A stretch of 46,619 nt of DNA from Asterionella formosa (Eukaryota). The notes under the pieces are model-generated. The model was not told the origin of the DNA, searched no databases, and saw only the letters and a program-made list of their open reading frames with translations. Positions 8,261 through 45,686 of the stretch are shown here, in pieces. Positions within the stretch are counted from its first letter, which is position 1; each line of letters opens with the position of its first letter. A program made the position numbers and the translations under genes. The stretch is taken from NCBI GenBank assembly GCA_002256025.1, contig NKIB01014164.1, positions 1-46,619 of the forward strand. Reading direction: 5' to 3'.

Positions 8261-9334
8261 GATGTTGGGAGAAGGATGAGTGGCAAGGAGGTCTTGCTAG
8301 CTGATAGTCTTTTATATACGGTGTGTGTGTGTGTGCAAGGATTGAATGGCTCGCTCCTTTCTTGATGGTTGTTCTGCAAAAGGATTAATGATATTATACG
8401 ACCGGTTCTTCCGGTTGCTTTTCACAAAAAAGAATCGTGCTTGTCTTTTGTACCGCCGATAACAATAGTACCGGTACCAGTACTCCTACAAAACAAATCC
8501 CAGCATCACGTGAAAAAGTTCCTATGATTTGGCTATATTGATATACCGGTAGGGGTAAAATTCATATTATGGTGGGACCGGTACCGGTTTATGTTCTACA
8601 AAAACTTCTAAAAAATGCATATATATATATCTATGAATGAAGTTTAATCATCCCAAATTGAGTTTGAACAGACAAATGTGTCCCATTTAGCTACATATTT
8701 AGCCTTTTTAAATTTTAAAGATATACATATACGATTATATGTATTTAACAAATGACCTTTTTTATTCAGATGAATACCAGTACCGGTACTACATAAAAAG
8801 GTTTATTATATAGACAGTTTCGGTGATCTAATGAATTTTATGTCCACGTACACGTCAATATATCCAACAAGGTCCAAATATCCTGTCGATTCAATGTTAG
8901 TAGTCTACAGTATCAATTTTTGAGACTCCATATTGATTTATATATTTATACATTACATTTATACTGATTTGCCGAATAGCTAGCAGTACATACACTCAGT
9001 ACATGATGATGTGCCACAATTATTTCATAAAATAATGCAGCATACCGGTACCGGTAGTAGAATGATTCCGGTACCAGGTACCCGTATTCATATTTCGTGA
9101 CATGATAGCTACCGGCTGTTTACTAGCTACACAGAGTACCTGGTACCGAATACCCTAATTACCTTGACGTAATACAAGTACCGGTACCGCTTTAGAGAGA
9201 CGCAATGAATGGCTATACCAGAGGTACCAGGTACATTGAAACAAACAGAAAACATGACTTAAAATGAAAGAACAAAGCAAGCAATAGTATTGGAAGCAGT
9301 TGAAATTGTATTTTTACCCATATTGTACTCCTAG

Positions 9335-11459
9335 CTAGTCAAATCGGATTTTCTTGTTCACTCTCTTGGGTGTTGGCTTCTCGTCAATATCTCTCTTGGC
9401 CTTGTCTCGAAGAGTATCCAAGTCATCCTTGTCATCGGCCCATTCTAGTACCAAATGTCGTCCGTACAAGTGAGTACGGGACAAGGTATGCATAGCTGAT
9501 TGAGCTTCTTGGCTTGTCAAGAACTCAATAAAGGCAAAGCCGCGATGACCACCATCAAACTTTTTGGGCAGGCGAACCTTCTTCAACTGACCAAATGACC
9601 CAAATAACTTCAAGATTTCGGTCCGTGATGCCTGGAAGGGGACATTTCGAACCATGAGCTTGGTTGGGTTTTTTCCATGTGCCTTGGCATCAGGAGCCTT
9701 GTTGGCTCTAGTACCTACAGCTTTGGACGATCTCTTCAGCTCGAGGGCATGCCCGTCAAGAACATATCCTTGCAACGACGTGATAGCCCTCCGGACTGAT
9801 TCTTCGGAATCGCATTCAACAAAACCAAATCCCATAGATAACAACACATCAGACTCATCCGCTTTGCTAGTTTGGCCCTTTTTGATGGCTGCCACCTTGG
9901 TTGGAATTTTCACGGCACGTACTGTCACATGCTGGGTAAAGAGCTGTAGCAACTGATCTTCGGTTGTTGCAAAGTTTAAATTTTTGACATAAATGGAGTA
10001 CGAAACATTGGGTGACATAGAACCATTGTCCAAGGCGTCCTCCTCCGCTTCAGCAACATCAACATTTACCACCGACGGTTCCGAAGGCACCAACACCGTA
10101 GCTGCACCCTGCTTTTCCGTATTTGCAGCCAGTGGCGCCCACTCCAAATACAGAGGCACATGCTTAAATCTCTTGTAGGCTAACTTTTTGAATGCTCGCT
10201 TGGCATCAGAAGCATGATTGTATTCTACCATGGCTATGGTGCGAGACGGTGGCAGCAATATACGATTTGGGGCATCTCCAACCCCACTAAAGAGTTTCAT
10301 CAGATCCTCTTCCTTAGTATCAAAAGGTAAGTTCTTCACTAGAATGGAATTGGAACTTCTAGTTCCGTCATCCGTTGGTGTCTTGGATGATGACGATACT
10401 AAAGCGTCCATGTTGATTCCATGAGAACGGAAATACTCTCGATTTTCTTCAATGAGCTGCGTTTCTGCCAAGGCCAATCTAACTGCAGCATCACCAGAAT
10501 TTAGCCCATCCTTAAGATTGAAAATGTCTCCCTTTCGAATTCCCAGTCGTTCTGCCAAATTGTCAACGACAGCGTCTCCACGCACAAAACTCGCCGACCA
10601 CCCTTGATTGGTCTGTAACGCTTGTTTCTGTCGTAGCAATTCTTGCGTTTGTTTGTACGAGGTCGAATCAATGTTAGCTTCTTCCTCCACTACCGCAGGT
10701 CGTGCTGGGAGGACATGAATCCAACGTCCTTGAAAGTCGGACGAATTCAAGGCCTCCAATGCAAGGTTGGCGTCTTGCAATTTTTCAAAAGTACAAAAAG
10801 CAAACCCCTTGGTTCTTTTTTGATCATCCACAGGTACATGGCATTCTAACAATGTTCCATACTGTCCAAAGTGATCTCTCAAGTCTTCTTCTGTGGTTGA
10901 AAATGGCAAATTTCGAATAAACAGTCGGTTGGATCTGGGGATATCGTCATTATTGTTGTTGGTTGTGTCAGTAGTAGTTGCTGTGGTGAGAGTTGGATCC
11001 TTGTTTTTTGGTTCATCACTTTTAGGTGACGTCGCTTCTGCTATCTTTTCTTCACTGGAATCACCTGACGATGATTCATCACTGGAATCATGTTCTTCGA
11101 AAATCTCTGGTTTCATGGGAACTTCAATTTCATCATCCTCATTGTCCTCATCATCACTATCAAGATTCACTTTGTTAGTTGTGTTCTTTCTAAGAAAATC
11201 TTGATCTGTCAATACTGTTCCAGGAGCAGCTGTTACTTTTTGACTTGTAAATGCCTCCGCATCATCATCATCGGACGACGAAGATGTGGAGGATTTGGTG
11301 GAAGTCGATGAATCATCGGCTACAACAGTGTGATCCTCATGATGGTCTGCTACAACAATAGCATCTGCACCACCATCATCATTTTGCCAAAATTTTGGTT
11401 TATTCTCTGAAACTCCCATGGCTGATAAAAATTCTTGTTTCTTCAAGTCTTGTTTTTGC

Positions 11460-11491
<32 letters not shown>

Positions 11492-11971
11492 CTTCATGTT
11501 GATTTGTTTGGTTGTATCAGAAATGGTTGGCTCTACCTCCATGTCTTTTGCATTTGACTTTTGATTATTTTTCGAGTGTTTGGCTTCATATTTGGATGAT
11601 CCTTGACTATGTTGACTCCATGGTCGGTGTTGTTGTTGTTGTTGTTGTGGTAACATCTTGTCATTCTTTCCAAACGCCAAATCTACAGCCAATTGACTGG
11701 TTTGTGCATATGTGTGATGAAATTGATTGACAATCCATTGTGCTTGTTGAGATGTCTTGACTCCAACAAAGCAAACTTTACGTGACTTTCCTTGAGGATT
11801 ACGTAATACTTTACAATCCGTAATGACCAATTGGGTAGGGACAGTGGAGGAAGATGAGGATAATGATGACGACAACAAATGGGCCTTCACTTTGGATTCG
11901 TCCCATGATAATGGGATATTTTTAATACAAACACGTGTTGACAAAGACGACGACGACGACGACGACGTCAT
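9335..11971 (-). CDS. MRD1: Multiple-RRM pre-rRNA processing protein Mrd1/RBM19
   Basis: Five RRMs (KGFAFC, MGFGFVE, RGFAFIEF) plus the conserved AAVRLALAET, PLYLEWAP and THLYGRHLVLEWA motifs. Confidence 0.95.
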
Positions 11972-12705
11972 GCTGGATGCTATTTATTGCTAATGGCTAC
12001 GAAACTTGAGTTGTTGGGCAAGGAGTAAAGAGCAAGTAATCGAGAATTGAAAGAACAAAATGATGCAAGGGGGCGGCGCCGTTCAGATGTGTAAAATGAC
12101 TCTCAGTAAGAGTACCGGTAATGAAATGAATAAAGTAGCTAGGTATATATAATAGTCGTACAGAAATAAAATATGATTGATATTTTTTTAATGGAGGCAT
12201 CCCAAAATATATGAATTTTAAAGGTTGTTCTTTTCCGCAAACTGTAAAATTGATTGGTTCCAACGATAACTGGTGGGGTTTGATTGTGTGCTGGATGGTG
12301 GGTGGTGGTGGCTGCCAGGGTGCAAATAAAGAAAACAGACCCGGAGTTTCTTGTTCCACCAATTCTACACGGACATCCACATTCATGTGCGTATGAATAG
12401 TAGCTACCTACACAGCTCCTCCTATTCAATATTAACCACTCGAGGCAGGCAGGCAGGCAGGTACGATACAGGTATACAGGTACCTCCGTTGGACCAGGTA
12501 TTTTGTGTGTAGGTGTCATAGTATTTTGCTTGCTTGCTTGCTCGATCGATCCTCGGCTGTCTGCTTCCAAATTCAGTACCGGTATCATTGTTATTATTTA
12601 ACCTGCGTCCCTGGTACCAGGTATCGTACTGTATTACAATTACAGCATTCGATATTTAGTACCCATTAGTATCCTCGTTAGTCTCGTACTAATACCTATT
12701 CCACA

Positions 12706-15116
12706 ATGACATCGACTTGGAACGGCGCTGCCATGTCCCAATGGGACATGATGGAGAAGGACACAGTCTTGGTATTGAATGACAACGATGAGATTCAGGG
12801 TTCTGCTAGCAAAAGGACCTCGCACGTGTTTGGACCGGACCAACCACGAGGGATTCTTCATCGAGCCTTTTCCGTCTTTTTGTTCGACGCATCCACCAAC
12901 GAATTGTTATTGCAGAAACGAGCCAGTACCAAAATCACCTTTCCCGACGTAAGTGCATATAGCTTCTGCCGGTTCGTTTCTTTCGATTGACAAACAAATG
13001 CCTGAGCACTCATTTCATTTGCAAAACTCGAAATTCCAGGTCTGGACCAACACTTGTTGCTCTCACCCACTCCATGGGATGGAACCCAGTGAAGTCGATG
13101 TATCCATTGATGCCGAGGGGTCCGTGCGAGGGGTCAAACATGCGGCCATTCGGAAATTAAACCATGAACTGGGCATTCCACCAATGCAACTAAATGTTGA
13201 CAAATTCAAATTCTTGACACGTCTCCATTATTGGGCGGCCGATACGGTCACTCATGGACCCAAGGCACCATGGGGAGAACATGAGATTGATTATGTTTTA
13301 ATTTATTGCATTCAAAACAAGAAGGAAATGACTCTGCACATCCATCCTGATGAAGTCGATGCGATTGAATGGGTGACCTTGGAGCAGCTTGAAATGCAAA
13401 TGGCGGATCCTAACTTGTTGTTTTCACCATGGTTTAGGTTGATCCTTCAAAAGTGGTTGAAGCCATATTGGTGGAACAACCTAAAGGAAACTATGGAGAC
13501 GAACAAGTATTGCGATTATGAGACCATTCATAGATTTGATCCTCCAAAGGAACATTTGGGTGGCGCTGGAAATGCCGGACCCTTGTTTCCTGATACCATT
13601 ACTGTCGGGGATGTCAAGTGAGTTTATGATTCTTTCAATCCATCAAAGTTAGTGCTTTCGTATTTACTTACAGTTGCTTTCCTACATGCTCCTTGTTTCG
13701 TTCAGCAAAAAGCAGGGGGGCTATGGCAAAATCAAAACTCATTCGGAATCCAAACTCTATCAATTGACTTTTTTGGACGAAGTTTGGTCTGCCATTACGT
13801 TACTGTACATCAAGCCATTGAAGTCCAATCTCGATACAGAGTATATCCAAAACACTTTTTCCAAAGCTGATCTGGCTTTTTGCGATGAAATTCTTGGAAA
13901 AGTATCTAGATCCTTTGCTGCTGTGATTCGACAACTCCCTCCCACGTTGTTGGTAGACATTATGATCTTCTATCTAGTCTTGCGAGCCTTGGATACCATT
14001 GAAGATGACACAACAGCTTTTGCTTCAAATGACGTTAAAGTCGATCACTTGATTCACTTTCATGAAAAGGCATTGGTAGACCCCCAATGGAGTTTGGACG
14101 GAGTGGGCGAAGCTGACGAAAAGAGACTCCTACAACAATTCCCCAAGTGTCATGCTGTCTTTGCCGCCTTGAAAAGTGATTCCAAATCCATTATTACCGA
14201 CATTACTCACCGCATGGCCACTGGTATGGCTGAATTTGTTGGAAAGGATATGGGACAAGGAACGACAGATGTTGTTGAATACAATCGTTACTGTCACTTT
14301 GTTGCAGGTTTGGTCGGGGAAGGTTTGAGTCGGTTGTTTGCCTCCAGTGGACTGGAAGAACCAAGCCTAGCTTCCCATTTGCATTTGAGTGACCAAATGG
14401 GGCTGTTTTTACAAAAGGTCAACATCATTCGAGATTATTTGGAAGATTACGTTGATGGACGTGCTTGGTGGCCACAGACTGTTTGGAAAAAGTATTCTGA
14501 TACAGGAGATCTTGGATATTTTTGTAACCAAGATGATGCAAAAGTTCGAACAAAGTCTCTCCAGTGTTTAAATGAACTCGTCACTGATGCTCTTGAATTG
14601 GGGCCCGATTGTCTTGCATACATGTCCAAGCTGCAGTGTGTCGAAGTCTTTCGATTTTGTGCTATTCCCCAAGTCATGGCGATTTCTACCTTGGACAAAC
14701 TCTACGCAAATCCTGATGTGTTTACTGGAGTAGTCAAAATTCGCAAAGGTCTCTCCTGCAAACTTTTGCTGAGAACTAACAATTTGTACGAATTGCATTC
14801 CATCTTTCATCAATTTGCCACATCAATTGCTACAAAAGCTCAGAAACGACAAAAGGCTGGACTGGATGATCCCTCCTTTGACCGTACCATGCAAGCTTGC
14901 CATGCCATTATCGAATTGACCATGGCCAAGACAAATCAACACCGTTCTACATCCATTTCTTATTTTGCCTTGGTGGGCTTGTGGGGGGCCGTGCTTTGGA
15001 CGGGAAAGGACCAAATGACCATGATTGCAATTGCTGCATTGATGACGTTCATTGTTAGTCCCTGGCGCGCTCCACCAAACTCGTTGAAACCAGCACACTT
15101 ATTGAAACAGAAATGA
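12706..15116 (+). CDS. IDI-SQS: Isopentenyl-diphosphate isomerase-squalene synthase fusion; exons 12706-12948, 13040-13617, 13706-15116
   Basis: IDI type 1 motifs (LHRAFS, WTNTCCSHP, WGEHEIDY) spliced in frame to SQS motifs (VSRSF, LDTIEDD, YCHFVAGLVG, MGLFLQK.NIIRDYLED, FCAIPQVMA) and C-terminal TM anchors. Confidence 0.95.
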
Positions 15117-15613
15117 TTGTAATGAAGAATTGTAATGGACCTTTTTCTCTCTCTCTCTCCATGTCCGCATGCACTAATTATTACTAGTACTCACAAGAAC
15201 TGTTTCATTTGCAGTCTAGAGTAGATTTTACTGTACTGTACATACGGTAAACCTGCTCTAATCAGCTCAGTCAACTAACCCAGCAACAAACAAGTTCTGA
15301 CAAACAGAAAATCCACCAAAGTTGACGTGGTTTTATGAAAGAAAACCCGATGCATGGTCATTGTGTTGGAATATGTTGTACTATTTCAGTTGTCAATGTC
15401 TTCCTATTTACGGTTCAATCCAATTCTATCTGCTACCGAAGGCTTTTGCTTTGTAAGTGATACATGGGAGGTACCCTTCCCACTAGATCTGATCTGCTTG
15501 TTGCCATTTGCAGCTTGACGTCGTTCCGATAGAATCTGAGTGTGTCGGGAAAAAATAAAAAAATCAGCAAAAAAAACCAAGTTGCAATTGGTTCGAGGAG
15601 GGGAAATTTTTCA

Positions 15614-15619
<6 letters not shown>

Positions 15620-15653
<34 letters not shown>
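15620..15653. repeat. (TA)n microsatellite
   Basis: About 17 TA units. Confidence 0.9.
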
Positions 15654-15656
<3 letters not shown>

Positions 15657-16691
15657 CATTTTAATAATAGAATTACCTCTTCATACTCTTCAATGTCATC
15701 AGTCTTGAGCTCAATGCGAGTTGGTGGTCGTCGGAGCGCCATTTGCTTGTTTCGTTGTTGAAATGTATGTTTGGAACAAAGTTGTTTGTTTTGTTTGTTT
15801 GGGCCGTGGTGTGTGCAAAGTCAAATAAAAATAAAGAAAACAAGAAAACCAAATCGTGCGGCCGTCGGCGCCGGAACAACAACCAACAGAGCGAGTGTGC
15901 TGTGTCTAGGAACGAGTATACCACCAGCACATAGCTGTGGCAGAATGTTGTGATTACCATCAGGCGCGGTTGTACTAGGTACTCTTATGTGCCATCGTTA
16001 GGGTACCAGTACCAGTACCAGGTACCAGGTAGAGAACAGTTCCAAACCAGGTACCTGGCACAGTGGTGCCCCCAAGCAATACAGTACATACATCTGTCCT
16101 GGTCTACGTATATATACTATATGCTGTACAGTCGAGTCTATTGGAAGTATTTAACGGTATATAACGTTTATTAAACGCCCTTCTGCTTGTTTTGGCTCAC
16201 CAATTGCGGAGTAGGTACCGGTAGAACAGTATCATTTTGGTACTCCAGTAGACTACCGGTAGTCTAATAACAGATACGGAGTAACACCTGGTACAAGGGT
16301 AACAGACCATACTGGTATACACATATACCCCTCTGTATGTAGTAAAATAAAGGAGTACAGAACCGGGTGCCTTTAAATTTCTCGCACTTGATGATTTGGT
16401 GTCAGAATCTAAATACAGTCCGTATCATCCAATTACGGTGGTGGTACCAGGTACCTGGTACCGGTATACTCATCGCTCAATGGATGTCAAATCATGATTT
16501 CTATTTTACTACCAGTATATATAGTTACAGGTAGTAAGCTATAATTGTCTCATGCACATCGTGCTCCTTTTTTGGCAACGACCAACACCATTTTGTTTAT
16601 TGTGTATATCCTGGATATCATCTTTGGTGGGTCCTTTTCATTTCAAGTTTTCCCGTTTCGATAGAGGTGATGATATAAGATTGCCTACAAT

Positions 16692-17768
16692 ATGAGACAT
16701 TTCCACACTTTCGTATTACAATTAGTTCTTCTCCTTCTCTTGCCGACTGCAGTACAAAGTACAAAAGTGCATGTTACGCCTTTGAACAATGAAGGCGGAG
16801 TAGACGCAGAATCCAACGACAGTAATGAGGACTGTCGATGGGGTGAACCCTGTTACACCAACGAATCGTCGTCGACTGCACCTAGCATTGATTCCTCCGA
16901 GGGGTCCAACAATAATAATAGCAACTATAACAACAACAACAACAACAACAACAAGAAGGAAAAGCAACAAAGCGTGCCTTTCCTTCGAACGACTCCACCA
17001 GTAACAAAGAAACATGACCCACCATCTGGTTTCATCCTTACGGCACGAGTGTATACCAGCGAACATGACAAAATGGCTCATTTTGATACTACCGAATTGA
17101 CACTGGACTTTTTAACATGTGGCGTTGCGGGGAGTACAACAAGTGGGATACCCATCCAACATGCCTACTTCCGACATGCTCTGTCCAGTAGTAAGCCAGC
17201 TGTATATCAGGGAACTGAATATGGACCGCATCCACAACTGTTGATTGCATTGTCAACTATAAAGATGGAACTCAATTCAGGTGAAACCAGAAATTTTAAT
17301 GAAGGATCGGTGGTGTTGCTAGAAGATGTTGTAAGTGGAGGACACAAACTCACGTCACCCAATGATGGAGATGTGCTGGTGTTGCTCCTTACATTACCAC
17401 AACATTATCATTACGTTGGAAAAGAACGAACGAGTCTTCCGAATGGTCAACGATTGCAATGCAAGGAGGATGGTACATTGCACCGGAAATTGACGAGAAA
17501 ATATATTCTTGGGGGGATCGGGGTGGGATTCACATTGATCATTGCGGATTGGATGGGTAAGGTGGCACCTTTATGGTTGAGTGTGGGTATTGGTGGTGGA
17601 TGTTTTGTTGTTGGTGGTACATGGTTACTGGTTGAAGGAGGCGATCGCTTGGTGGATTCAATTGAATATATGGTGGAGCAACGGAGAATGAAGCAAGAGG
17701 GTGAAGTTGATGCACTTGAGATGAAACCCATGGTTATGGATTCAGAGCCTCTGGTGCACGTGAGCTAA
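16692..17768 (+). CDS. Signal-peptide protein with a cupin-like domain and two C-terminal TM segments
   Basis: Hydrophobic N-terminus, poly-Asn, PHPQLLI...GETRNFNEGSVVLLED..SGGH cupin-like motif, two Gly-rich hydrophobic helices. Confidence 0.7.
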   Translation: MRHFHTFVLQLVLLLLLPTAVQSTKVHVTPLNNEGGVDAESNDSNEDCRWGEPCYTNESSSTAPSIDSSEGSNNNNSNYNNNNNNNNKKEKQQSVPFLRTTPPVTKKHDPPSGFILTARVYTSEHDKMAHFDTTELTLDFLTCGVAGSTTSGIPIQHAYFRHALSSSKPAVYQGTEYGPHPQLLIALSTIKMELNSGETRNFNEGSVVLLEDVVSGGHKLTSPNDGDVLVLLLTLPQHYHYVGKERTSLPNGQRLQCKEDGTLHRKLTRKYILGGIGVGFTLIIADWMGKVAPLWLSVGIGGGCFVVGGTWLLVEGGDRLVDSIEYMVEQRRMKQEGEVDALEMKPMVMDSEPLVHVS

Positions 17769-18196
17769 TGACACAAGAATTGCAAGAAAATTTGCAGTGT
17801 GACTCGACGGTGTACAAGTGTCGCGATTTCTGTGAATGCATTATTCCACGAAGGGTTAGATTTGATCTGTTAATATTGTGTATTGAATGGGATGGATGTT
17901 TGATTTCAACCATTTTGATAAAGGAGTCTCAAGTAGCAGAGATCATCAGGACTTGAATAATGGCGTACTTTTGCAATCACTTTGAAAATCTGGAATTAGG
18001 AAGGACGTCCTAGTTATCAGCAAACTGTGATTGTAGCAGTTAACGAATTTGAGATGAAATGAGCTACTAGGGAACTATTTTTGGTTTGCTACTTCTTTCG
18101 ATCAATGCAATAAGTAATGAATGGTGGACTATTTATTTGAGGTAACTGATTGCAACTCCATTTGTTCAAAAGGAAATGGAGAACCGTACGCGAAGG

Positions 18197-20593
18197 TTAG
18201 AGAACAACTGTCGTCACACGAGCTTGCCGTGACAGACGCTGGCCGTCAGAATGTGGAGCGTACATGAGAAGTTCTGCAAAGCTAGAAGGGTCCATGGGAT
18301 TGGTCTCAATTGGGACGGGGTTGGCTTCAATTAGCAACTGTATAGTCTTCATTGTTCTATGATCTTTCGCGAAATAAACGTCCAGTGGCGTACGTCCTCG
18401 AGCATCAACCTCTTTTGCCGCATCCTTCCACTTTTCGAGTAGAAACTTGATGACTTGAGGTGAGGAGTCATAGTAGCATGCTGTGTGCAATGGAGTGAAT
18501 CCAACGGTAGTCTTTTCCTTGAAGATGTTATTGTATTCACCGACTAGTAATCGAACTTTTCTCAGTCCTAGCTTGTGGCGACAAGCAAGGTGAAGCGGTG
18601 TACTGCCACCCTCACCACTTTTCATCATTATGGTAACCGGATTCTTGCCTACCAGATAGGCGATTTTTTCGTAACAAAAACGATCAATCGATGCAGCACG
18701 GTGAAGGGGGATATGACCATGTTCGTCTTTGGTGACAAGACATTTAGGGCGAGACTCTACTAGCAACATCACCTGATCCATTGTATATGCATGTGCAAAC
18801 TTGATTGCTTCGTCAGCTGCTTCAGGAAAGATTTTGTATGTTTTCTCAACCAAAGGAAGTTTTGCACCAAGAAGGCATATAGCTGTCAGTGGGTACATCT
18901 GTTCTTGGGGAGAAAAAGTAGGCAGGTGGTACCTAGCCTTGAAAATACTTTCGTGAAGGTCAGCCAAATTGCTGACTGTTTCTTCATCCAATTTTGCTGC
19001 TTCAGCGGCGATAAATGGATTCAAATCGAGGTGCTTTAGAAGAGTTTTTTCCGCTTCATTTTTTGAGCTCGCCTTGACGCCGTCGTGATGAGTCGATTGC
19101 CCCAAAGTTGGCGCATCTAGCAACTTGGTCTCCTCAGGAGAAATGAACTCAGATGGCTTATTTATTAGCAGTTGTGGTATCAAAGGACAGAAATCTGTAT
19201 TAACTATGGTAGGATACAAATCAGTCTCTCGTCCCTCATAGAGAACTGTTGAAGTTGTCAATTCACAAGGCTTTCCAGGGAAATTCGCAATTCCCAAAGT
19301 GAGTAGCAGGGTGTCTCGTGTCATCCTATTGGGTGCTTCTAGTTGCAAGCGAGCATGGTGCGACAGTAATGCTTTTACCATACCAGCGTCATCGAGTAGT
19401 CCTATTGGAAAAACGAGATCAAAGGCCTTAGGTTGGCATGGATCTGAAGCAGCCGAAACATTCAGAAATGGCCGCAAATGGATTTGATTTAGGGTATTTC
19501 CAGCCAACTGGTAAATAGTAGTGGCGCTCATCACTTTCTTTTTTATGATATTGATTTCGATCTGAACTCGAAACGTGTGCCCTTTGGCGTTGCCTCGTCC
19601 CTTCAAGTTGCTAAACTGAGCACCACGAACCAGCGCTTGACGTGCACCATTGAAAAGAGACACATCCGCGACGATACAACGTCGTGTCTCACAAGTCACT
19701 GTTCGCTTCTCCAATGTTGTTTCTGTCGGTTCGTTTGCTTCCCGATTAAGTTCTCCTCGCTTTTCAAGAGTGATGAGACATTTCAAGCGATGGCCGACAT
19801 CTGTTGGAGAAGGTTGGTAGGCAGCGTAGGTTGCTCCTTTCAGAAGTACCCATTCGACGGGTACTTTCCCTCGAGCTACGATTTGGGCTTCGCAAAATTC
19901 AATCTTGGCGACTTCACCCACTGATCGAAACCACTGAAACTCATAGCCTTGAACAGGACACGGCTGCAATTCCGACAATCGAGTCACCAAAATCGACGAC
20001 GTTGTAGCTGCGGCAGACGTGGCGGGGAGGAGTTCAAATGTTCCAAAGCTGGTCTGAAGAAAGAGATTGCATGTCAAGGATTTGATGACTTCTTTTTCCT
20101 TCGTTGGTTCCGCGGCCGGACGAGCTGCATGGCGCTCTTTTGCTTCGATTGCTGCCGTTGCGACTGCGGAAGCTGCATTCTGAGCTGTTGTAACTGCTGA
20201 TGATGCAATCTGAGAAGTGGCGATTGCCGACACTGCATGCTGAGCGGTTGCAACTGCTGAGGCAGCAATCTGAGAAGTAACCACTACGGATGCTGCATTC
20301 TGAGCAGTTGCAAGTGCTGATGCTGCGATCTGTGACGTTGCAACTGCAGATGCTGCAATCTGAGCTGTGGCTCGAACACGATACCCCCAAGATGACAGCT
20401 TTCCAAGAGTGGAATTATCGGGTTCGACGTTGTCGACTGGTTGTAAATGTTCTGATTTGAATTGTCCTTCGGAACTTTCTGAAATGTGTGTAACAGGTGG
20501 AACTAAAGCTTCTTCGACGAGATGGATTGTGCTTACAAATTGATTCTCGCTCACTCCACAGTTTTTGACATCTCCTATCGTAAGTTTCAACAT
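18197..20593 (-). CDS. Protein with Ala-rich 10-aa repeats, an Ig-like (AIR9 A9-like) domain and C-terminal ankyrin repeats
   Basis: 798-aa ORF; FQWFRS...YQPSPTDVGHRLKC; ankyrin motifs GHIPLHRAA, GSTPLHLAC, GFTPLHTAC, GRTPLD. Confidence 0.75.
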   Translation of the reverse strand: MLKLTIGDVKNCGVSENQFVSTIHLVEEALVPPVTHISESSEGQFKSEHLQPVDNVEPDNSTLGKLSSWGYRVRATAQIAASAVATSQIAASALATAQNAASVVVTSQIAASAVATAQHAVSAIATSQIASSAVTTAQNAASAVATAAIEAKERHAARPAAEPTKEKEVIKSLTCNLFLQTSFGTFELLPATSAAATTSSILVTRLSELQPCPVQGYEFQWFRSVGEVAKIEFCEAQIVARGKVPVEWVLLKGATYAAYQPSPTDVGHRLKCLITLEKRGELNREANEPTETTLEKRTVTCETRRCIVADVSLFNGARQALVRGAQFSNLKGRGNAKGHTFRVQIEINIIKKKVMSATTIYQLAGNTLNQIHLRPFLNVSAASDPCQPKAFDLVFPIGLLDDAGMVKALLSHHARLQLEAPNRMTRDTLLLTLGIANFPGKPCELTTSTVLYEGRETDLYPTIVNTDFCPLIPQLLINKPSEFISPEETKLLDAPTLGQSTHHDGVKASSKNEAEKTLLKHLDLNPFIAAEAAKLDEETVSNLADLHESIFKARYHLPTFSPQEQMYPLTAICLLGAKLPLVEKTYKIFPEAADEAIKFAHAYTMDQVMLLVESRPKCLVTKDEHGHIPLHRAASIDRFCYEKIAYLVGKNPVTIMMKSGEGGSTPLHLACRHKLGLRKVRLLVGEYNNIFKEKTTVGFTPLHTACYYDSSPQVIKFLLEKWKDAAKEVDARGRTPLDVYFAKDHRTMKTIQLLIEANPVPIETNPMDPSSFAELLMYAPHSDGQRLSRQARVTTVVL
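20161..20370 (-). repeat. Coding tandem repeat, 30-bp unit x7 with a 60-bp higher-order period
   Basis: Encodes AQIAASAVAT/SQIAASALAT/AQNAASVVVT/SQIAASAVAT/AQHAVSAIAT/SQIASSAVTT/AQNAASAVAT. Confidence 0.85.
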
Positions 20594-20867
20594 TGTTTAG
20601 CAATATAATGCCTTCTTCCTTCTTTGAATTATTATTGATCAGTTACTTCTTCCGGTAGCGTTATTATTTTGTGGGAAGCTTCTGAAAGTGACAATAGAAA
20701 TTTGAAACAATTTGAAATCCATGGAAGCCAAAAAATGACGAACATTGCCAAAAAAGCGGAGGTCGTAATTTCAAAATGAACAACATAAATGTGAATGTAT
20801 TGTACATCACGCTTTGCATGCTTGAAAATTTCCCGCAACACTATCTCGTTTACATCAAAATAAAGCA

Positions 20868-22001
20868 TTATTGATGTTTCTTCTTTTTTGTTTTCTTCTT
20901 CTTTCCTGACGATGGTTTCAGTTTCGCATCCTTCCACCGATCAGTAATATAACTTGGTAATGGACGATAAGATGAATTGTCTTTTGCACCAAAGCAATAT
21001 ACCAAATGTGACAACCTGTGTCGTGCATTCATTTTCAGTCTAAGATCGAAATGAAATGCAGTGTGCTCACAATCTGTTGTCCCGTCCTCTTCATAGCCGC
21101 TATATCGGGCAGTTCCGTTCAGCAATGACATTCGATAAATTGCAAAGATACTAAAGGATGATTCCACCTCAATCAAACCATTGGGCCATGATGAGGCGTT
21201 GTCAAAGAGGCTAGTCAGGTTATGTTCATATATGTCAAAGTCGTCGAAATACGGATTGTCTTGTCCCTTGAACAAAAAGTTGTGTGGCAGCATGACCGGA
21301 TGTCGGAAGGCCCACCAGTCGTAATAAGGAATTTGTCGAAACGTCAAAACATCCCATTGGTCTCCTAGTTCCCATATTACGTACTTGAATATATTCGGAT
21401 CGTAGTTCCCTTCCCAGTCGGATGAGCAAATCATATCTGGATCCATCATGACCATGTAGTCATAGTGTGCATAGTGCTGTTCGGCATACTCCAACACAAT
21501 GTTCCGTGCCTTGGCAAGTCGTAATGTCTTTGGTGCGTAATTGTCGCCTAGTCCTTTTTCGAGGAGCAAATGGTCGTTCGCGCCTGGAACATTGTCTTGC
21601 ACTAAAATGGTACAAATACTTGTATTACCACCTCATTGGTTCAGCAGTTCATTACGAGTGTTGTCCGTGGAATCATTTTCGTAAAACACAAAATGAAACT
21701 CGCGTGTTATTGTTTTGGCCAAGGCAATAAATTTTGGAACATTGTCCTTGGCGCTGATTTCTATGTTTCGCCAAACGGCACAAAAGACAATCTTGGGCAA
21801 GATGTACGGCACGCGTCGTTGTCCGGTGATTGCAGGTTCCGGTAGTAGTGCCGTGGAATCGTTGTCATAGTAAAAGTTGAAGCGAAAATTTTTGGATGGA
21901 ATTCCTTGTAGAAGGAAAAGTGAAGAAATTGTAATTAGCGCAAGTGCAAACGGCAGGATTCGGATCAACTGACGGTGACTTAAGAAAACGCTAGCCGACA
22001 T
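20868..22001 (-). pseudogene. Type II membrane GT-A glycosyltransferase (CAP59-like motifs) with one in-frame TGA at 21635-21633
   Basis: Two ORFs in the same frame read YENDSTDNTRNELLNQ*GGNTSICTILVQDN...; LAKARN, MMDPD (DxD), VESSF..FAIY and DCEH..FH motifs; N-terminal TM. Confidence 0.7.
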
Positions 22002-22147
22002 TCTCTCAGGCTGCAACAACAGAAGGGAACGACAGAGAAATGAAGACTGGACACGTTTGTTTTGGCCATTGTTGATTCCAAAAGTAAGAACCGTCTTCTA
22101 CTGTAAGGCAACAAGAGAGGTTCGATCTGTTACGTCACGTCAATTTA

Positions 22148-23260
22148 TGTTAATCTCATAAGTATACCGGTATACCGGTATATGTATTTGGAGACGGACA
22201 GACGGAAATTCTGACGCGTCACCTAAATGATAATGACACACGATTAAGCTATGTTGGCAATTTGCGTTGGGCAATAGAATTAGGCCGCATTGATCTGGCA
22301 CATACAGGTGCAACAATGGCCACATTCATGGCAGCACCCTGCAAGGGACACATGGTCGCCATTTTGAGAGTTTTTGCTTGTTTACGAAAACACATTTCTT
22401 GTAAGTTGGTTGTTGATCCACGAGAACATGATTGGTCCAATAAAATATGGATATCTGCAAATTGGAAAGAATTTTATCCAAACATTAAAGAAGATCTTCC
22501 TTCAAATGCACCAAAACCACGTGGAAAAGCATACAATTAAACATGTTCTGTGATGCATCACATGCTACAAACCTGGTGACAATATGATCTACAACAGGCA
22601 TTATCATCTTTCTGAATGGCACTCCAGTCAAATGGTATTCTAAAAGACAAAATACAATTGAGTCATCAACTTTTGGATCTGAATTTGTTGCATTAAAAAT
22701 AGCAGCAGAAATGAATGATGCCATGCATTATAAGGTACACATGTTGGGTATTCCCATAAGTGAAGCTACAAAAACTTTTTGCGATAACAATAGTGTTGTA
22801 CTGAATGTAACACGACCTGAATCTACATTACAGAAGAAATACAATTCTATCGCCTATCATAAAGTGTGTGAATGTGTTGCAACAGAGGCAATGTGAATTC
22901 ATCATGAACCGGTAACCAGCAACTTGGCAGATGTCTTAAACAAATGGTTACCTCCCCATAAACATCTTGAATTATTTTGTTGCATGTTATGGCATTAACA
23001 TCAAGATGAAAATTAACATTTCCTTCTTGAGGGGACTATGTTAATCTCTTCATATACATATATTTTTGGCGACAGACAGATGGAAATTCTGACGCGTCAC
23101 CTAAATTCTGATTCTCTTGTGCCCTCGACTTTATTTTGTTTTACTTTGTGTAACTTAATAGTTTTTTTACATCTTCCTTTATCCCTTCCATCATTGTCTT
23201 CACCTCTGTACCCCGTTTGTAATCGTTTTCATTGTCTACCACATTAGCGAGATCTTAACA
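22148..23260 (+). mobile_element. Internally deleted, degenerate Copia LTR retrotransposon: partial 5' LTR 22148-22228, RT end and RNase H about 22240-22998, PPT, 3' LTR 23039-23260
   Basis: Both LTRs share TGTTAATCTC...GGAAATTCTGACGCGTCACCTAAAT; LRWAIELGRID, CDASHA, WYSKRQNTIESSTFGSEFVA and CDNNSVV motifs; GAGGGGAC before the 3' LTR; ends TTAACA; AATTT on both flanks (one base offset on the left). Confidence 0.9.
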
Positions 23261-24272
23261 AATTTGAAATGATAAGAGCATGCAAAATCTTGCGAATAAT
23301 TTAAATTTATCTAGCTGTATACAGGTACTCCGCCACTGATTTATATAGCGGTACTCTAGCACTGATAACATACCGAAACCGGTGAACAATTAAGGTTGGC
23401 CCAGAGTACGTTGCGGTTATTGGCAATTAACATCATGGCCTACATTTCAGTTAGAGAAGTTAGTAATATCCAAATCTTGACAATCTCGCCAATAGGCCTT
23501 CTCTCCATCCACCTAATTCAACGTTGGGGCTTTCATTGTCCACATCTCCTTTTCCTTTAAGCCACTATCATCAATTTAGGATCGACCCCTCCGATTAGAA
23601 CAAAACTGATTCGCAGCACCGAAATGCCGAGAGCCGGGGAGATCCCACTCACTCTCTTAACCTAGTAGCTCGTAAGCTTTAAGTCGACTCTGTACCATTC
23701 AGAAACGGTTGGAACCAATCCTGGCTGACAAGAACTGTCATCTTGGATTCAAAGATCATCTAGTGATTCAATTCAGGGGTGGGGGTGGGAAATTTTCTTC
23801 TCCTCCTAGATTCGACCTTGTACCCCGCCAGAGGATGATCAGGTCCTCCGAAGCAACAACCAACAAGAATGAGGCTCAACAAGTGTACAACTTCTCTAGA
23901 ATGCGTTGTGTCAACGAATTCAGAGAGTGAGCTATTTTATCCCTCACAAGCACCAGTGGATGTATACGTAAGTAGTAGTACATATATTATTCTGAGGCCA
24001 ACAGCTGCCCGAATAATTTTACTGACGCTCCTCTGCTGTTCTTCATGTAGTCCTATATCTTAGCTGGAACCACGAGATAATACGTAGAAGTACTGTACAG
24101 TGGTGACTACCGGTATTCGTTATGCATGATAGCAGGCAGGCAGCCATTAGCAATAGAATGAAGGTGTCTGTTAGTTAGCAATAGTGAAAGCGTGAAGGGT
24201 GTCCTTAACCTCGCTTACAATTTTGAAAATTAATCCTTTAAAACAGCTTAACATGTAGCCCTTTATCACTTA

Positions 24273-29660: not shown

Positions 29661-30239
29661 GTATGTTGATCACATTTTTAGGGTATTTATAGTACATACA
29701 GAGAGTTTTTTAAAATATATTTAGCGATTTCGACAAGGAATCTATGTACATATTCTCAAATTTCCACTGAATAAAATATTTCAAATGGAATCACATCATT
29801 CAAAAATAGCTAATAAAATTCTCAATTGCAGCACCGATTGCACCACTATTACTTAGAGAAACCAAAATTTCACCATCAGATTACCCATAAATAAAATCCG
29901 TGGTACTACGGCCTGCACTACCATAGTGATATTTACTACGTAGGATCACGATCAGATTCATATTAGATATGTATTTTGTAGTAGCCACAACCGTAGGATA
30001 CCCGGTACATAAATGTGATTGGAAATACCGGTACTAATAAAGTATTGCAAGCATTTTGTATCATATACCGGTATATAGGTTACTACCGGTAATGAATTCT
30101 TAACAAAGACACTCCGTGCTGACCTCATATTGTCGCTGCACCACATTGCACCACCATAGACATACTGGTACTTCATTTGCAGAAGTGTCAGCCAATCAGA
30201 AAATCTATTTTTATTTTCAATTTCAACTTGTAGTCGTTA

Positions 30240-30299: not shown

Positions 30300-31249
30300 A
30301 ATGATTCCTATTTGTATTTCAAAGCAAGGAGATGGTTTGTTGAACCAGTAATTTGGTTGATCAGGCAGCAAATCCGTGTCATGTTTAGGTTTGATTCTGC
30401 AAATCGTCATAAGTCAAATGTGTAATGTATCCTGAGTTGTTACTTAAGGATTAATATTTTCATCAAGAGCTGGCCTGTCTCGTCTGGCAGGTATGGGGCA
30501 AATCATTGGGAGTGAATTGTAACTGAAAAGGTGTGCATAAAACGTGCGGTAACTGGTACCAGAGCATCCAGGAGAATATGGTAGATGCATGAGCGTCAGA
30601 ATTATCACGATAAAATAGGCTGTAAATATATGTGTTGTATTCCTACAATGTAATAGTATTCTACATAAATATAACGGGAGCACTAATGTGATAGAACTCT
30701 TCTCATCATACCGGTACACCCCTCAAGTTTTATGCATGATGGTGTTCACCACTTGAGGGTCAGTAAAATACCTGAACAGATCCTGGAGCTGATTGTTTGT
30801 CCACACAGCTGTCATACAATCCTTGTCCTGTATGGTTACATTCATCAGCAGGTTTATACTATGGCTGAGGCATACTCGCAAGTTTCTTTTGTTCCTATGA
30901 TGCTACTCCTGCAACATTCTTCTCTCCTTATCCTAGGTCATGATTGTTATTGCAATTGACATACATCTCCCCAACAACAAACTTTATTCAGCCCTTTACT
31001 TCTCCTCACCACCTGACTTGTTGAATTCAATTCCCTAGAGGAGCGAGCTGTCCATGCTGCCTGCCAATAAGGCCATTTTCATGAAACCAAAGATATTCAA
31101 TTAATTGATTTCCTTTTGTTCTTTGCTATTCTTCCATCCATTTAATGTTGATCACCTTGAAGATATTGTTCATGCATCTAGTATACTCTTAGGCATACCC
31201 TGCCCTAGACTATTAATATTTGAGGAGGAGTCAAACATTTATCAATTTT

Positions 31250-34279: not shown

Positions 34280-34926
34280 GATGGGGACTGTGGATGTGGT
34301 GATAATACATGTGGTGCTGTTCCCATGGGTATCAGATACACGACGTACATTGAGTACGATTTACCATTAAATACCAGGGGGTTAGTAATAAAATGTACCG
34401 GTATTACGTATACTGTATATATTTATGATTGGAAAATCGACCTGATGTACTTTCTACAAAGAAAATGAAACGTGGTGAGTACAGTATCTGCAACTTGCGG
34501 TAATTGCGCTGTAACTAAACCTTTAGCTTTCTTTATCCTATGTACCGGTATATAAAATTGTTTTTTTAAGGAAAATGACCGCAAATTGTTGGTTTAACAG
34601 ATACTGGTTGGTACTTGCAGAGGGCGGCGGTGTGGTCATTTTGCTGAAACTGATGATAAGGCATCAAGGCACCAGACATCAGACATCAGGCCTGTATTTA
34701 ATGTCATCATGGAAAAACGTCTTAAAATTCATGGTTGAAACCTTCGGCTCCCACTATCAATACCGGTATATAGGTACATTTGCCGGTAGCATGACTCAGG
34801 TCTGCACGACTCCAAAATTTCCCAAGTCTCACAAAACAAACAATCCCTTTCCTACAGCACAAATTCACAATATCGATATCGTTCTATTAATTCTGCAACA
34901 GAGAAGGAAATTGATCATATTTGAAA

Positions 34927-35994: not shown

Positions 35995-36690
35995 ACATGA
36001 CAGTTGTGGAGGTCATCATGGAATATGTTAGGAATGTAAGTGTTAGTATCATCATCAAATAATACATATATGGAATCCTTGGGTCTAATTTGTTCGATTA
36101 CTAAAACTAGGAAAACCTCTGCAAGGAAGAGACATGCATACATACTATGTAATGGGAAGAACCACAACCTGGTACTCACAGTCCTACTAGAAAATACTTA
36201 AAAGGTGCTTGTTCATCTTTATGATACAAGAATGTACAGTATACATGTGTATAGGAAGTAGCAAATAGTTTTTTTTCGTGTCATGGAATGACGATATTTG
36301 CCTTCTGTCATGATGCTGTTTGGCAAAGCAATGAGGAGCCGAATAAATAGGATTCATATACCGGTAATAAGAAGAAAACATTCTTTGTAATGTAATTTGT
36401 ACGTAGCTACATAGTATTTCAAATACGAAGTCATATTATGTATTACCGGTTTGACCTGGTCCTATGTACGGCACCCACACCGATACTTCGTTGAGGTTGT
36501 TCGCCCACTACCGGTATGCTGGTCATTTCTTATGACAGCGGCTCAAAATTATCGTCACTAACAATATTTATCTCATTACTATTATATGCAATACTCTCAA
36601 ACTTCGCTCCACAATCGTTTCGTTGCATACACCACAAACAGTTATAAATATCTTTCTTTACTTAAATAACAAGCAGACGAAGACCTAACT

Positions 36691-40236: not shown

Positions 40237-40968
40237 GCCCATTAAGAAAAGAAGTTTTCGTGAACATACAGGACAAATAATTGTTGTAATGCTCTAGCCA
40301 TAATATGCATGATACATCGAATTAATAATTGCAATTGTTTTGATTGTCATTGAGCTAAAGCAAATACAAATAGATTTTTTTTAAATTTGTTTATGTGGGC
40401 AATGATGATGAGAACTGATAAAGTCGCATGGAAGTTTTGAAAAGATTTTTATATTTTAAATTTCAGCAGGGAATCGACTCGAAGTTACTTCGACGACTCA
40501 ATTACCATTACATCATAATTTATGTATATAGACTGTATTCTAATTCTTTTTTGTCATTAAAGGAATACCGGTAACAAACATGCCGGTACCCTGGTAAGCA
40601 CAAACCAAAGAATCAGGCGCGCCAGAAAAATATTGCTCTTGGTATGATGACCTATCCGTGCCCTCCTTGTTCTCGCACTGGTTTGTACTTGTGTACCAGG
40701 TACCTGGCACCAATCTTGTATGTAGACGACATTTCCATGTATGTATGCACGCATATGTACAAAGCAGAAAGAACCCCAACAAGGTTTCGACATGGTGGTG
40801 GGGATAATTATTGTTCAATCGATAATACTTAAGAAAATAGAATTGCTAAATGTTTTCATAGGTTTTTCTGTGATTTGCATCGCTTTTTGTCATAGACTAT
40901 ATTCTTCCACACAGCAATTTAAGTTGCTGTCTTTGAACGTCTTCCCATCGCAGCTTTCCATTACACCC

Positions 40969-43452: not shown

Positions 43453-43943
43453 AGTAGGATCACACGAATCTAGTGTGTGTAATGTGTATGATGTAATAGA
43501 CCATCAGGAGGACTGTTGCATTGTCAATATGTGAGGGTGACTGTGCGTGGATGCAACAAGGAGTACCAGGATCTAGGGTACTGATCACTGATTATCACCT
43601 GAGGAGGCAAAAGGAGGAGGATGGTTCATCAGCTTTGCTTGTATTATCCGTCACTGCCTGCTGCCGCGATACTTGTTGAATATACATAGGTATACCGGTA
43701 CAAATGTTGTATATAAATAAAGAATTATGAGTATGCCGGTATGCAGTTCTGGTAGTAGGTGCTGGTAATAAAATTATTAACTTAAAATCGGGTAGTCTAC
43801 CATTCTGTTTATATCAATAGATGCATTCCCCTTGATTGCAATTACTGAACTTTGGATAGTTCAATAGCCATAGTAGCAGTAGCTGTGCTTGCTAGAACAA
43901 ACTGTATACGTAGCCAAAATGATTTGCAATGTAAATTGTATTG

Positions 43944-45113
43944 CTATTGCCCCATTCCATGACTCTCGACCCAACTAATGTTGTGCGTCAGTTGAGCACT
44001 CTCACATTCTAACCTCCACTCAATGGGAGCCCAAGCTGCTCCCATATCATTTGAATTATGTCGATAGGGAATCGAACTCCAAACCATATGTTGTTGTTGT
44101 TCCAGAAGCATGATGGCAATGGCATGGACATTGGCATCTCCAACTCTATATTTGAAAAAGGCATGTTGTTCATTCAATTCATTCCAAATTTTCATCCACT
44201 CTGGTGAACTCCAAAATGCAACAGAAGCAATGTGAAAATTGTTGTATGGCTGTAACCCTATGTAGTCGCCTTGAGCGGTAAGAAAGGGAGTATCCTCTGT
44301 TATTGTAATGTGTGGTTTGGAAATCTCCCATAGTTTATGTACTCCCCAATGATCACTTGCACCACGTTTATAAAGATAATTCAATTGATTATTTTCCATC
44401 TTTTGAAATGGATCTTCTGGAATTTTGTCAATGAATAGCGAGTCATCATCCAATCGCATATAATATTTGTACTTCTTGATAAAGTCCATTTGTTGCAGTC
44501 GTCCACTCCAAAGTCGACACATGCTGGTATATCCAAGATCTCTTCCTTTCACACTCCCTTGATATCCTTCTCTCCATTTCAAAATCACATCTGCAGTAGT
44601 ATTTGGTTCCAAGGCATCCTCTGAATACATATTAATTTCTTGAAACACAATGGTTGAATGGTGTACCCATGATCGTATCAAAGCTTGGTCCCATTCGGTA
44701 TACGGGCCATCTCTTTGTTTGGGATCCAAATTCCAATCCTTGGCAACGAGAATGTAAATTGGATACGGACCATAGTGGGCATTCAATTGTTGATCAATGG
44801 AACGAATGACTCTCATTAGCAAACAAAATCGTGTTATATCGTTCCACCAAGTATCCATGGTCCGTTGAGGAGCTAAAATAACAATACATGCAAGACTTTC
44901 TATACTCCTTGTGCTGTTGTTGCTGCTGCTGTCGCTACTGCTACTACTGCTATCGCTACTGCTGTCATTCACAAATAGCAATGACACCGAGAAAATGGAC
45001 CAAAGGAAGGCAAGTACGAATGCGAAATGAATTGGATTGATTGATATTGCTGTTGGGGCACCTTTCAACGATAATGATGTTCGTCCCATGAATCGTTGCT
45101 GTGAAGTACTCAT
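43944..45113 (-). CDS. GT15 (Kre2/Ktr-like) alpha-1,2-mannosyltransferase
   Basis: N-terminal TM and Ser-rich stem; GYTSMCRLWSG, YYMRLDDDS, YNNFHI and YRVGDA motifs. Confidence 0.85.
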   Translation of the reverse strand: MSTSQQRFMGRTSLSLKGAPTAISINPIHFAFVLAFLWSIFSVSLLFVNDSSSDSSSSSSDSSSNNSTRSIESLACIVILAPQRTMDTWWNDITRFCLLMRVIRSIDQQLNAHYGPYPIYILVAKDWNLDPKQRDGPYTEWDQALIRSWVHHSTIVFQEINMYSEDALEPNTTADVILKWREGYQGSVKGRDLGYTSMCRLWSGRLQQMDFIKKYKYYMRLDDDSLFIDKIPEDPFQKMENNQLNYLYKRGASDHWGVHKLWEISKPHITITEDTPFLTAQGDYIGLQPYNNFHIASVAFWSSPEWMKIWNELNEQHAFFKYRVGDANVHAIAIMLLEQQQHMVWSSIPYRHNSNDMGAAWAPIEWRLECESAQLTHNISWVESHGMGQ

Positions 45114-45686
45114 TGGCGTTTGTCTAACAATTGGTTGGAATCGAATGGTATGACTTGAAAGGAAAGAATGATGATCAATGAGCATGCGATGGAGTGGTAC
45201 ATACACAAATACGGCACCAGTAAAGAAACACAATAACGACTTGTGATGTTATGTGATTGTGGTAGTACCTGGTACCAGGTACTCCTACCAGGTACCATAT
45301 GCCGATACCGGTAATAGCACATGTACCTGTGTACCGGCAGGAGATTGCTGCGAGCGACCAGAGGAAAGAAATTGTAGTGCGTGTTTATTATTAGCCATAC
45401 TAGACTGCCGGTACCAGTAAAGAACTGCTGTGACCAACTGAGTTCTCCTATTCGTTTGATTAGTTCGACTAAACCTATTCCATGCCTTGCGAGAATCAAA
45501 CTTCCAGGTCTTGTTAACCAAAGGAGTCAGCAGGTTGCGGATCAGTCGGTATTCTCATTGAAGGTCGAGGTACTGAGATACGAACCATTTTATGTGGACA
45601 ATATTTGCTGGTAATGGGTCACAGCAGTACTTAAAATTTTATCTATAATTGTATATAATTTTATATACCATTATGATCACGGATTA

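Follow-up and report, generated by a model that had tools for sequence, protein, structure and literature searches.

The noncoding DNA of a contig of the diatom Asterionella formosa (NKIB01014164.1; all 46,619 nucleotides (nt) were analysed and are called the window below) carries many copies of the palindromic octamer TACCGGTA and of close variants, each bounded by TA on both sides. The question raised by this locus is what placed so many near-identical short words there. A sequence-only reading of the window had taken them for footprints of the mass excision of Tc1/mariner transposons ending in CC...GG. We find that the observation is real and strong and that exact copies stand in a narrow zone upstream of most gene starts. 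Of the new facts this placement, overlooked in the sequence-only reading, tells us most. It leads us to prefer, at a probability of about 45%, a reading of TACC-N(0-1)-GGTA as a promoter-proximal cis-element, specific to the lineage and of the type bound by protein dimers.

A TA-bounded palindrome outside coding DNA

An exhaustive count gave 26 exact copies of TACCGGTA in the window, matching every position listed in the sequence-only reading and adding none, while 100 dinucleotide-preserving shuffles contained 0.19 copies on average and 2 at most. The excess that had been claimed is thus confirmed, and the chance level of about one copy that accompanied it is corrected to about 0.2. We used a crude coding mask of stop-to-stop open reading frames (ORFs) of at least 150 amino acids, which divided the window into 29,704 coding-like and 16,915 noncoding-like bases. 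Twenty-three of the 26 copies lie outside the masked ORFs, and the other three (12577, 34543 and 34761) are found at the edges of ORFs that no homology supports, 5' of the first ATG of real genes, so that the earlier statement that no copy falls in coding sequence is essentially right. The description of the noncoding DNA as saturated was too strong, as by our arithmetic the 54 units of the whole family make up roughly 2% of its ~16.9 kb, or one unit per roughly 310 nt.

The flanking TA belongs to the motif. Among the 16 palindromic NN-CCGG-NN octamers tested, TACCGGTA occurs 26 times, TTCCGGAA once and the remaining 14 not at all, and T...A flanks are present on 26 of the 32 ACCGGT sites. The phase is similarly restricted, with 26 copies of TACCGGTA compared with 3-11 for each of the other five 8-mers of (TACCGG)n. 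The motif is therefore a TA-bounded unit and not one phase of a hexamer repeat, and both the flank counts (26 versus 0-1) and the phase counts bear out the earlier claim that TA bounds the core on both sides. A different palindrome, TACATGTA, has a single copy in the window and is not enriched. Separately, TATATATA is over-represented across the window (19 versus 0.89).

Variants were counted at noncoding sites, with expectations from a second-order Markov model (Markov-2) and a first-order simulation, in that order:

TACCGGTA: 23 sites, expected 0.52 and 0.14
TACCWGGTA: 12 sites, expected 0.34 and 0.14
TACCSGGTA: 4 sites, expected 0.16 and 0.07
TACCAGTA and TACTGGTA, the CpG-transition forms: 11 sites, expected 1.27 and 0.68
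TACAGTA and TACTGTA: 11 sites, expected 5.3 and 3.0, merely a 2-3.6-fold excess

When the spacing between the half-sites of TACC-Nk-GGTA was varied, 23 noncoding sites were obtained for k=0 (1.47 simulated) and 16 for k=1 (0.88 simulated), followed by 1, 1, 0 and 0 sites for k=2-5 (0.56 expected at k=2). The half-site enrichment is limited to spacings of 0 and 1 nt. Noncoding sites of TACAGGTA and TACCTGTA together are at background (2 versus 0.64, simulation only), and TACCATGGTA has none. The single-end forms TACCTA/TAGGTA are not enriched (7 noncoding sites versus 12.8 expected), nor are TACCATA/TATGGTA (3 versus about 5.5) or TACCGTA/TACGGTA (1 versus about 2.9). The broader list of variants put forward in the sequence-only reading is thereby reduced to the CCNGG and CpG-transition forms, with a small excess of TACAGTA/TACTGTA; wider spacings, single-end forms and TACAGGTA drop out as background.

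Copies that differ from the octamer at one position occupy 26 noncoding sites (4.3 expected), compared with 23 for perfect copies, and include the 11 CpG transitions TACCAGTA/TACTGGTA and four copies of TGCCGGTA/TACCGGCA. The similar number of one-off and perfect copies fits steady creation followed by neutral decay. The 54 units form 45 arrays, mostly single units, and the flanks of most are unrelated; 10 of the 23 exact noncoding sites read TACCGGTATA. Nine pairs of neighbouring units share a TA, and the resulting chains mix CCGG, CCAGG and CCTGG cores. Tandem Repeats Finder scored two motif clusters, 16002-16031 and 22162-22182, and tandem structure is absent for most copies. Because of this and of the phase preference, we conclude that the copies are dispersed TA-bounded units and not a microsatellite.

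Placement relative to genes

We defined 15 gene starts in the window as the first ATG of the long ORFs together with a NUDIX/IDI-like first exon at 12703; these are our own models. An exact copy lies 100-250 nt 5' of the first ATG, a zone set post hoc, in 11 of the 15, at distances of 117, 121, 126, 142, 164, 166, 175, 182, 209, 233 and 241 nt, and no exact copy lies 0-99 nt upstream of any of them. Random placement in noncoding DNA gave a mean of 2.4 genes, or 3.5 when the repeat-rich segment 22300-28869 was left out, with a maximum of 9-10 genes, and none of 5000 trials reached 11. At gene ends the tendency is reversed: one of 15 has a copy within 250 nt downstream, compared with a simulated 4.4-5.8. 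The zone holds 12 of the 26 exact copies and 6 of the 28 variants, the latter at three genes. The ORF-poor, repeat-rich region 22098-28869 (~6.8 kb) contains five of the 54 units, and 17766-18199, the sole clearly convergent (3'-to-3') intergenic region, contains none. The genes with an upstream copy are functionally unrelated and include those for an RRM protein, a NUDIX protein with squalene synthase, SYF1, a histidine phosphatase and a mannosyltransferase.

It is the narrow zone beside unrelated genes, the rule of two spacings and the scarcity in repeat-rich DNA that lead us to place a general, dimer-bound promoter element first; upstream bias (in a zone chosen post hoc) and half-sites at fixed spacing are both features expected of such an element. 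The two inverted TACC half-sites have a form suited to a dimeric DNA-binding protein, which would find its site ~120-240 nt 5' of the start codon in most genes, whatever their function. Its role would resemble that of a general regulatory factor that marks or opens the promoter, more than that of a switch for a single pathway. Duplication of the TA-bounded unit of 6-7 nt may supply additional copies and so build the chains, and copies would be lost by deletion of units and by point mutation, quickest at the central CpG.

The sites of the family are given below in their order along the window:

8469-8482: TACCGGTACCAGTA, an exact copy and a CCAG unit sharing TA, 209 nt 5' of ATG 8260 (minus-strand gene)
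8544-8551: exact TACCGGTA
8775-8788: TACCAGTACCGGTA; position 8779 is A in the window and G in runs X3, X6 and X7, changing TACCAGTA to TACCGGTA, a CpG-transition polymorphism
9043-9056: TACCGGTACCGGTA; one 6-nt unit absent from contigs of runs X3, X6, X7 and X14
9072-9080: TACCAGGTA, then CCCGTA; X3 has C>T at 9074
9137-9152: TACCTGGTA followed by CCGAATA; 7 nt at 9144 absent in X3, X6 and X7
9179-9186: exact copy, the sole one that follows a stop codon by 250 nt or less (gene 9335-11983, minus strand)
9225-9233: TACCAGGTA, abolished in X3, X6 and X7 by substitutions at 9225 and 9227
12113-12120: exact copy, 142 nt 5' of ATG 11971 (RRM-protein gene, minus strand)
12577-12584: exact copy, 126 nt 5' of ATG 12703 (NUDIX/IDI-like first exon, plus strand)
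12615-12623: TACCAGGTA, 88 nt 5' of ATG 12703
16004-16031: TACCAGTACCAGTACCAGGTACCAGGTA, a four-unit chain, one of the two clusters scored as a tandem repeat
16216-16261: two exact copies, at 16216 and 16254
16445-16466: TACCAGGTACCTGGTACCGGTA, three different TA-sharing units, 233-247 nt 5' of ATG 16692
22165-22180: an abutting pair of exact copies, 164 and 172 nt 5' of ATG 22001
24108-24115: lone exact copy within the repeat-rich, ORF-poor region 22098-28869
29999-30170: cluster with TACCCGGTA, exact copies at 30026, 30066 and 30084, and TACTGGTA
30709-30716: exact copy
34396-34403: exact copy, 117 nt 5' of ATG 34279 (SYF1 gene, minus strand)
34543-34550: exact copy in the divergent promoter region that separates the SYF1 gene from gene 34927
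34761-34768: exact copy, 166 nt 5' of ATG 34927
36359-36366: exact copy, 332 nt 5' of ATG 36691
36509-36516: exact copy, 182 nt 5' of ATG 36691
40566-40573: exact copy, 175 nt 5' of ATG 40741
40694-40702: TACCAGGTA, 47 nt 5' of ATG 40741
43693-43700: exact copy, 241 nt 5' of ATG 43452 (histidine-phosphatase gene, minus strand)
45266-45313: TACCTGGTACCAGGTA, TACCAGGTA and an exact copy (45306), 81-121 nt 5' of ATG 45185 (mannosyltransferase gene, minus strand)

As for the neighbouring genes, the NUDIX (IDI-like) ORF is directly followed on the same strand by the squalene/phytoene-synthase ORF (12703-15116), an order that recurs in many related loci, and an (AT)17 microsatellite lies in the intergenic DNA downstream of the squalene-synthase ORF (15620-15653). 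The SYF1 ORF is 47% identical to proteins of Nitzschia, Cylindrotheca and Seminavis and 99%, 70% and 66% identical to environmental proteins. DNA of the window is present in 20 of the 24 listed sequencing runs, from 13 studies labelled as algae, freshwater metagenome or lake-water metagenome. Both results mark its source as a freshwater diatom. No Rfam family had a match in the window.

Gain and loss of units in strains, repeats and relatives

We compared contigs from four sequencing runs (X3, X6, X7 and X14) with positions 8200-28199 of the window and examined 12 of the 86 indels and 40 of the 770 substitutions. Six nucleotides at 9043 are absent in all four runs, leaving a single unit of TACCGGTACCGGTA, and 7 nt at 9144, inside TACCTGG-TACCGAA-TACCC, are absent in three of the four; substitutions at 9074, 9116 and 9225/9227 change other units. 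Near 23040, a paralogous copy of the repeat has neither of the two units present at 22165-22180; its TA-rich surroundings have diverged. Gain and loss therefore involve entire units. The short allele is in neither strain indel a lone TA in unique sequence, since the one at 9043 leaves a unit behind and the one at 9144 lies between TACC repeats. The alignment of TA against TA-core-TA alleles that the sequence-only reading had called for therefore gave a divided answer, with whole-unit indels between strains and paralogs and no empty lone-TA site in unique sequence.

Read depth raises the possibility that the units are decayed pieces of a miniature inverted-repeat transposable element (MITE) or of some other repeat family that carries the motif in its ends. 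In X3 the depth at 16014 is 1481.6, compared with about 30 nearby, and contigs from other loci pile up on the chains; the 15-mer CCAGGTACCTGGCAC also occurs twice, at 16047-16061 and 40696-40710, and is the sole shared sequence that runs a few bases past the units. The binned X3 depth over 15537-16870, however, is 70-75, far under the peak on the chain, which indicates that the sequence between the chains does not look multi-copy. The loose contig ends beside the 16014 chain are heterogeneous (agreement 0.44), and the joints from 16022-16034 to 16435-16444, with sides of 19-27 letters, are read as chain-like sequence from other loci. No conserved sequence was found beyond the units, the repeat families D4, D8 and D16 share the units alone, and the units show none of the shared flanks, terminal inverted repeats (TIRs) or multi-copy interiors by which a MITE or dispersed repeat is recognised. 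We regard an origin from repeat fragments as very improbable.

Multi-copy DNA does occur elsewhere in the window. Over 24208-24874 and 26876-28199 the summed contig depth is higher by a factor of tens than in adjacent bins, in each of the four runs, and no Pfam domain was found in these two stretches. The segment 27465-27856 contains repeats about 187 nt apart, and at 27258-27294, inside the second stretch, the 9-nt inverted pair TACCAGTAC...GTACTGGTA is separated by 19 nt; it could be a remnant of a tiny inverted repeat or a chance pairing.

In order to place the family among related genomes, we searched with the squalene-synthase ORF and obtained 80 metagenome loci, 62 of which remained after 18 near-identical duplicates were dropped. 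The closest has 75% squalene-synthase identity and the same species is not among the 80, while L006, L008 and L009 are 99.98-100% identical to one another and are uninformative on polymorphism. Counts of exact, 1-nt-spaced and CpG-transition forms, in that order, were as follows:

Window: 26, 16 and 12, expected 0.38, 0.55 and 1.9
L008: 0, 3 and 4, expected 0.16, 0.19 and 0.76
L001: 1, 1 and 1, expected 0.04, 0.05 and 0.2
Other 61 loci (383,214 bases): 4, 5 and 13, expected 2.45, 2.92 and 9.25

The enrichment is lineage-specific. Upstream of the IDI-like gene, CCGGTA-like words occur in a few of the 32 relatives' loci listed, by our estimate about the chance level; the relatives sampled are distant, with squalene-synthase identities of 75% or less. 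The nearest relative, L008, carries another word instead, TACTAGTA, with 13 copies in 14.9 kb versus 0.41 expected. It also has promoter islands, at 7800-8700, 13880-13900 and 14570-14670, that consist nearly throughout of TA alternating with C, G, GC or CTC; (TAG)n is also seen inside ORFs of this locus. Two other observations concern unrelated sequence. An excess of GGACGTCC in L035 proved to be a different phenomenon, a minisatellite at 1800-2220 of ~20-nt tandem units, each with one GGACGTCC (12 copies), in two inverted blocks. The closely similar viral contigs L081 and L082 contain three TACCGGTA per 10 kb, and a chain pattern matched three viral contigs; judged by eye, these matches seem to fall in coding-like sequence, and they are irrelevant to the finding.

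The wider comparison bears on a transposon-free explanation, in which TA-bounded words with G+C cores are a functionless mutational by-product spread in promoter DNA by slippage or short tandem duplication and TACCGGTA happened to take off in this lineage. Among the 32 loci, the window included, in which noncoding DNA amounts to 1 kb or more, 10 have a significant excess of TA-[CG]1-6-TA (z 3.7-9.2), the 6-nt indel at 9043 is a change in copy number of a tandem unit, and the array at 16004-16031 resembles (TACCAG)2(TACCAGG)2. Set against this are the mostly single units with unrelated flanks in 45 arrays and the mere two clusters that score as tandem repeats. Slippage can account neither for the start of identical octamers at dozens of unlinked positions nor for their location 117-241 nt 5' of 11 of 15 ATGs, and we consider this explanation improbable.

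One related locus holds a transposon in a comparable setting. Locus L066 (50% squalene-synthase identity) contains a 3.78-kb DNA transposon at 6621-10404 with 23-nt TIRs (GAGTGACAG...), whose ORF at 7241-8398 matches DDE_Tnp_4 (E 1.1e-07). TA is present on both sides of the element, a flank that may alternatively be read as a 5-nt CTAGC duplication, and the element sits within a TA-x-TA island rich in CTAG/TAG, 150 nt 5' of the ATG of an ankyrin gene. Its left end also occurs in L065.

The L066 element gives some substance to the excision-footprint explanation. A cut-and-paste transposon that duplicates TA and has 5'-CC...GG-3' ends, from Tc1/mariner or another TA-duplicating family, would cycle through accessible promoter DNA and leave TA-CC-GG-TA behind, sometimes with an extra central base. 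Chains would result from re-insertion into the TAs of footprints and from slippage, and CpG transitions would erode them. This explanation accounts for the strict TA...TA phase, for chains that share TAs and combine different units, for unit-sized indels between strains (6 nt at 9043, 7 nt at 9144) and in paralogous repeats, for the neutral-like decay spectrum and for the lineage-specific cores of relatives (TACTAGTA and TA-C/G/GC-TA). The share of TACCGGTATA among the exact sites would then imply a TA in TATA context as the target. Like Tc1/mariner footprints, the units have TA on each side of a short palindromic core that could represent 2+2 terminal nucleotides of an element.

The element itself is missing from the window. 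When inverted ends flanked by TA were sought (13 or more matches out of 16, at most 7 kb apart), 28 pairs came up, none of them convincing, and those starting with CC are motif chains or chance; the earlier proposal to match the inserts to the TIR ends of resident elements consequently met no TA-flanked element with CC...GG ends here. Pfam detected no transposase domain in the 34 window ORFs scanned (16 large ORFs and 18 ORFs located at 22-31 kb), and a copia-like fragment suspected by eye at 22290-22900 is without Pfam support. Single-end forms are typical of characterised Tc1/mariner footprints, and the Sleeping Beauty footprint is TACWGTA; in the window single-end and partial forms are depleted or missing and spacing 2 is at background, a spectrum narrower than that of Tc1, mariner and Sleeping Beauty. 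By our arithmetic, random re-insertion into ~1365 noncoding TAs would yield roughly two adjacencies among 54 units, compared with the nine found, neither strain polymorphism has a lone-TA short allele in unique context, and the tight zone 5' of ATGs demands the extra assumption of promoter targeting. What survives of the original inference is the TA-bounded unit, the gain and loss of whole units, neutral-like decay and lineage specificity; the element, the transposase and the single-end spectrum are not borne out in the window. The transposon interpretation is neither shown nor refuted. It seems to us doubtful, though clearly better placed than a by-product of slippage, that scars of a TA-duplicating transposon in open DNA 5' of genes wrote this palindrome, which the cell may since have come to use, into most promoters of this lineage, and other cores into those of related lineages.

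A possible promoter element and its precedents

Returning to the dimer-type promoter element, what is observed directly is an excess of copies, a rule of two half-site spacings, a biased position relative to genes, indels of whole units and a spectrum of decay; binding of a protein and any effect on transcription are inferred. Several points weigh against this preferred reading. The density is high for a factor site, since exact copies outnumber the genes and as many as six occur within 900 nt. In the mixed chains, a shared TA joins nine of the 54 units to a neighbour, which is awkward for independent sites. The near-equality of one-off and perfect copies suggests that most copies are not strongly constrained, and strain differences strike the units no less than their flanks: by our count 5 of the 20 listed substitutions in 8409-9277 hit units that cover ~12% of that stretch, so the units are not visibly protected. 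Enrichment is lacking at 61 other squalene-synthase loci of relatives (383 kb), and the promoter islands of L008 use other cores, TA with C, G, GC or CTC. The 100-250 nt zone was set with the data in view and the gene starts are our first-ATG models, although the effect is large nonetheless. Finally, we know of no protein that binds the unit. A mutational origin is kept alive by several things, namely the TA-sharing chains, the whole-unit indels, the absence of visible constraint on most copies, the different words of relatives and the L066 transposon. The readings are not mutually exclusive, as scars could later be put to use.

The closest precedent is found in another stramenopile. In Phytophthora infestans, both TACCGGTA (M94) and TACATGTA (M93 or motif-1) are over-represented promoter palindromes, and the passages cited interpret both as sites of homodimeric factors (PMC3597505; PMC3520976). 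The diatom motif is the identical octamer to M94, shares the TAC-NN-GTA frame with M93 and, like both, is palindromic and lies upstream of genes. According to the same passages, the Phytophthora motifs are tied to expression stages and effector genes, whereas in A. formosa a narrow zone upstream of 11 of 15 unrelated genes holds the octamer, which is accompanied by a 1-nt-spaced variant and TA-sharing chains and is found where TACATGTA is not enriched. The lack of enrichment at the 61 loci of relatives makes simple inheritance of one conserved site unlikely. A footprint origin had been raised for TACATGTA as well, with the Tc1 footprint taCATGta cited in comparison, and in the part of PMC3520976 concerned its authors set the idea aside because of the abundance and conservation of the motif, which counts against the same idea here.

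Other known systems resemble the diatom units in part. Sites of yeast general regulatory factors such as Reb1 and Abf1 are short and stand at a set distance upstream of many unrelated genes, and the factor differs between lineages. In this functional sense the diatom units are analogous to them, except that Reb1 and Abf1 sites are usually single and the diatom units form TA-sharing chains. HIP1 of cyanobacteria is likewise a lineage-specific octameric palindrome far in excess of chance, but it belongs to prokaryotes and is spread over genes and intergenic DNA, while the diatom copies avoid coding DNA and are positioned by gene starts. Our literature searches found no precedent for excision footprints at this density or in a promoter zone, nothing relevant on excision footprints or mariner elements in diatoms and no description of a general promoter motif for diatoms. 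For diatoms, neither the octamer nor promoter palindromes gave a relevant hit beyond the Phytophthora paper retrieved for TACCGGTA, and the octamer alone retrieved primers and barcodes.

The promoters of diatoms are still little understood. A palindrome standing in one fixed zone 5' of ~70% of the genes in the window offers a direct handle on the factor that would bind it, and could aid the prediction of promoters and gene starts in this lineage as well as the design of expression cassettes. If the units are transposon scars instead, a large part of promoter sequence would stem from excision and not from insertion, to our knowledge the first case in which excision footprints form a noticeable part of regulatory DNA. 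The abundant TACATGTA of oomycetes, for which the same idea was set aside without a test in the passages cited (PMC3520976), would then also deserve another look. The placement of the octamer at promoters makes the question testable.

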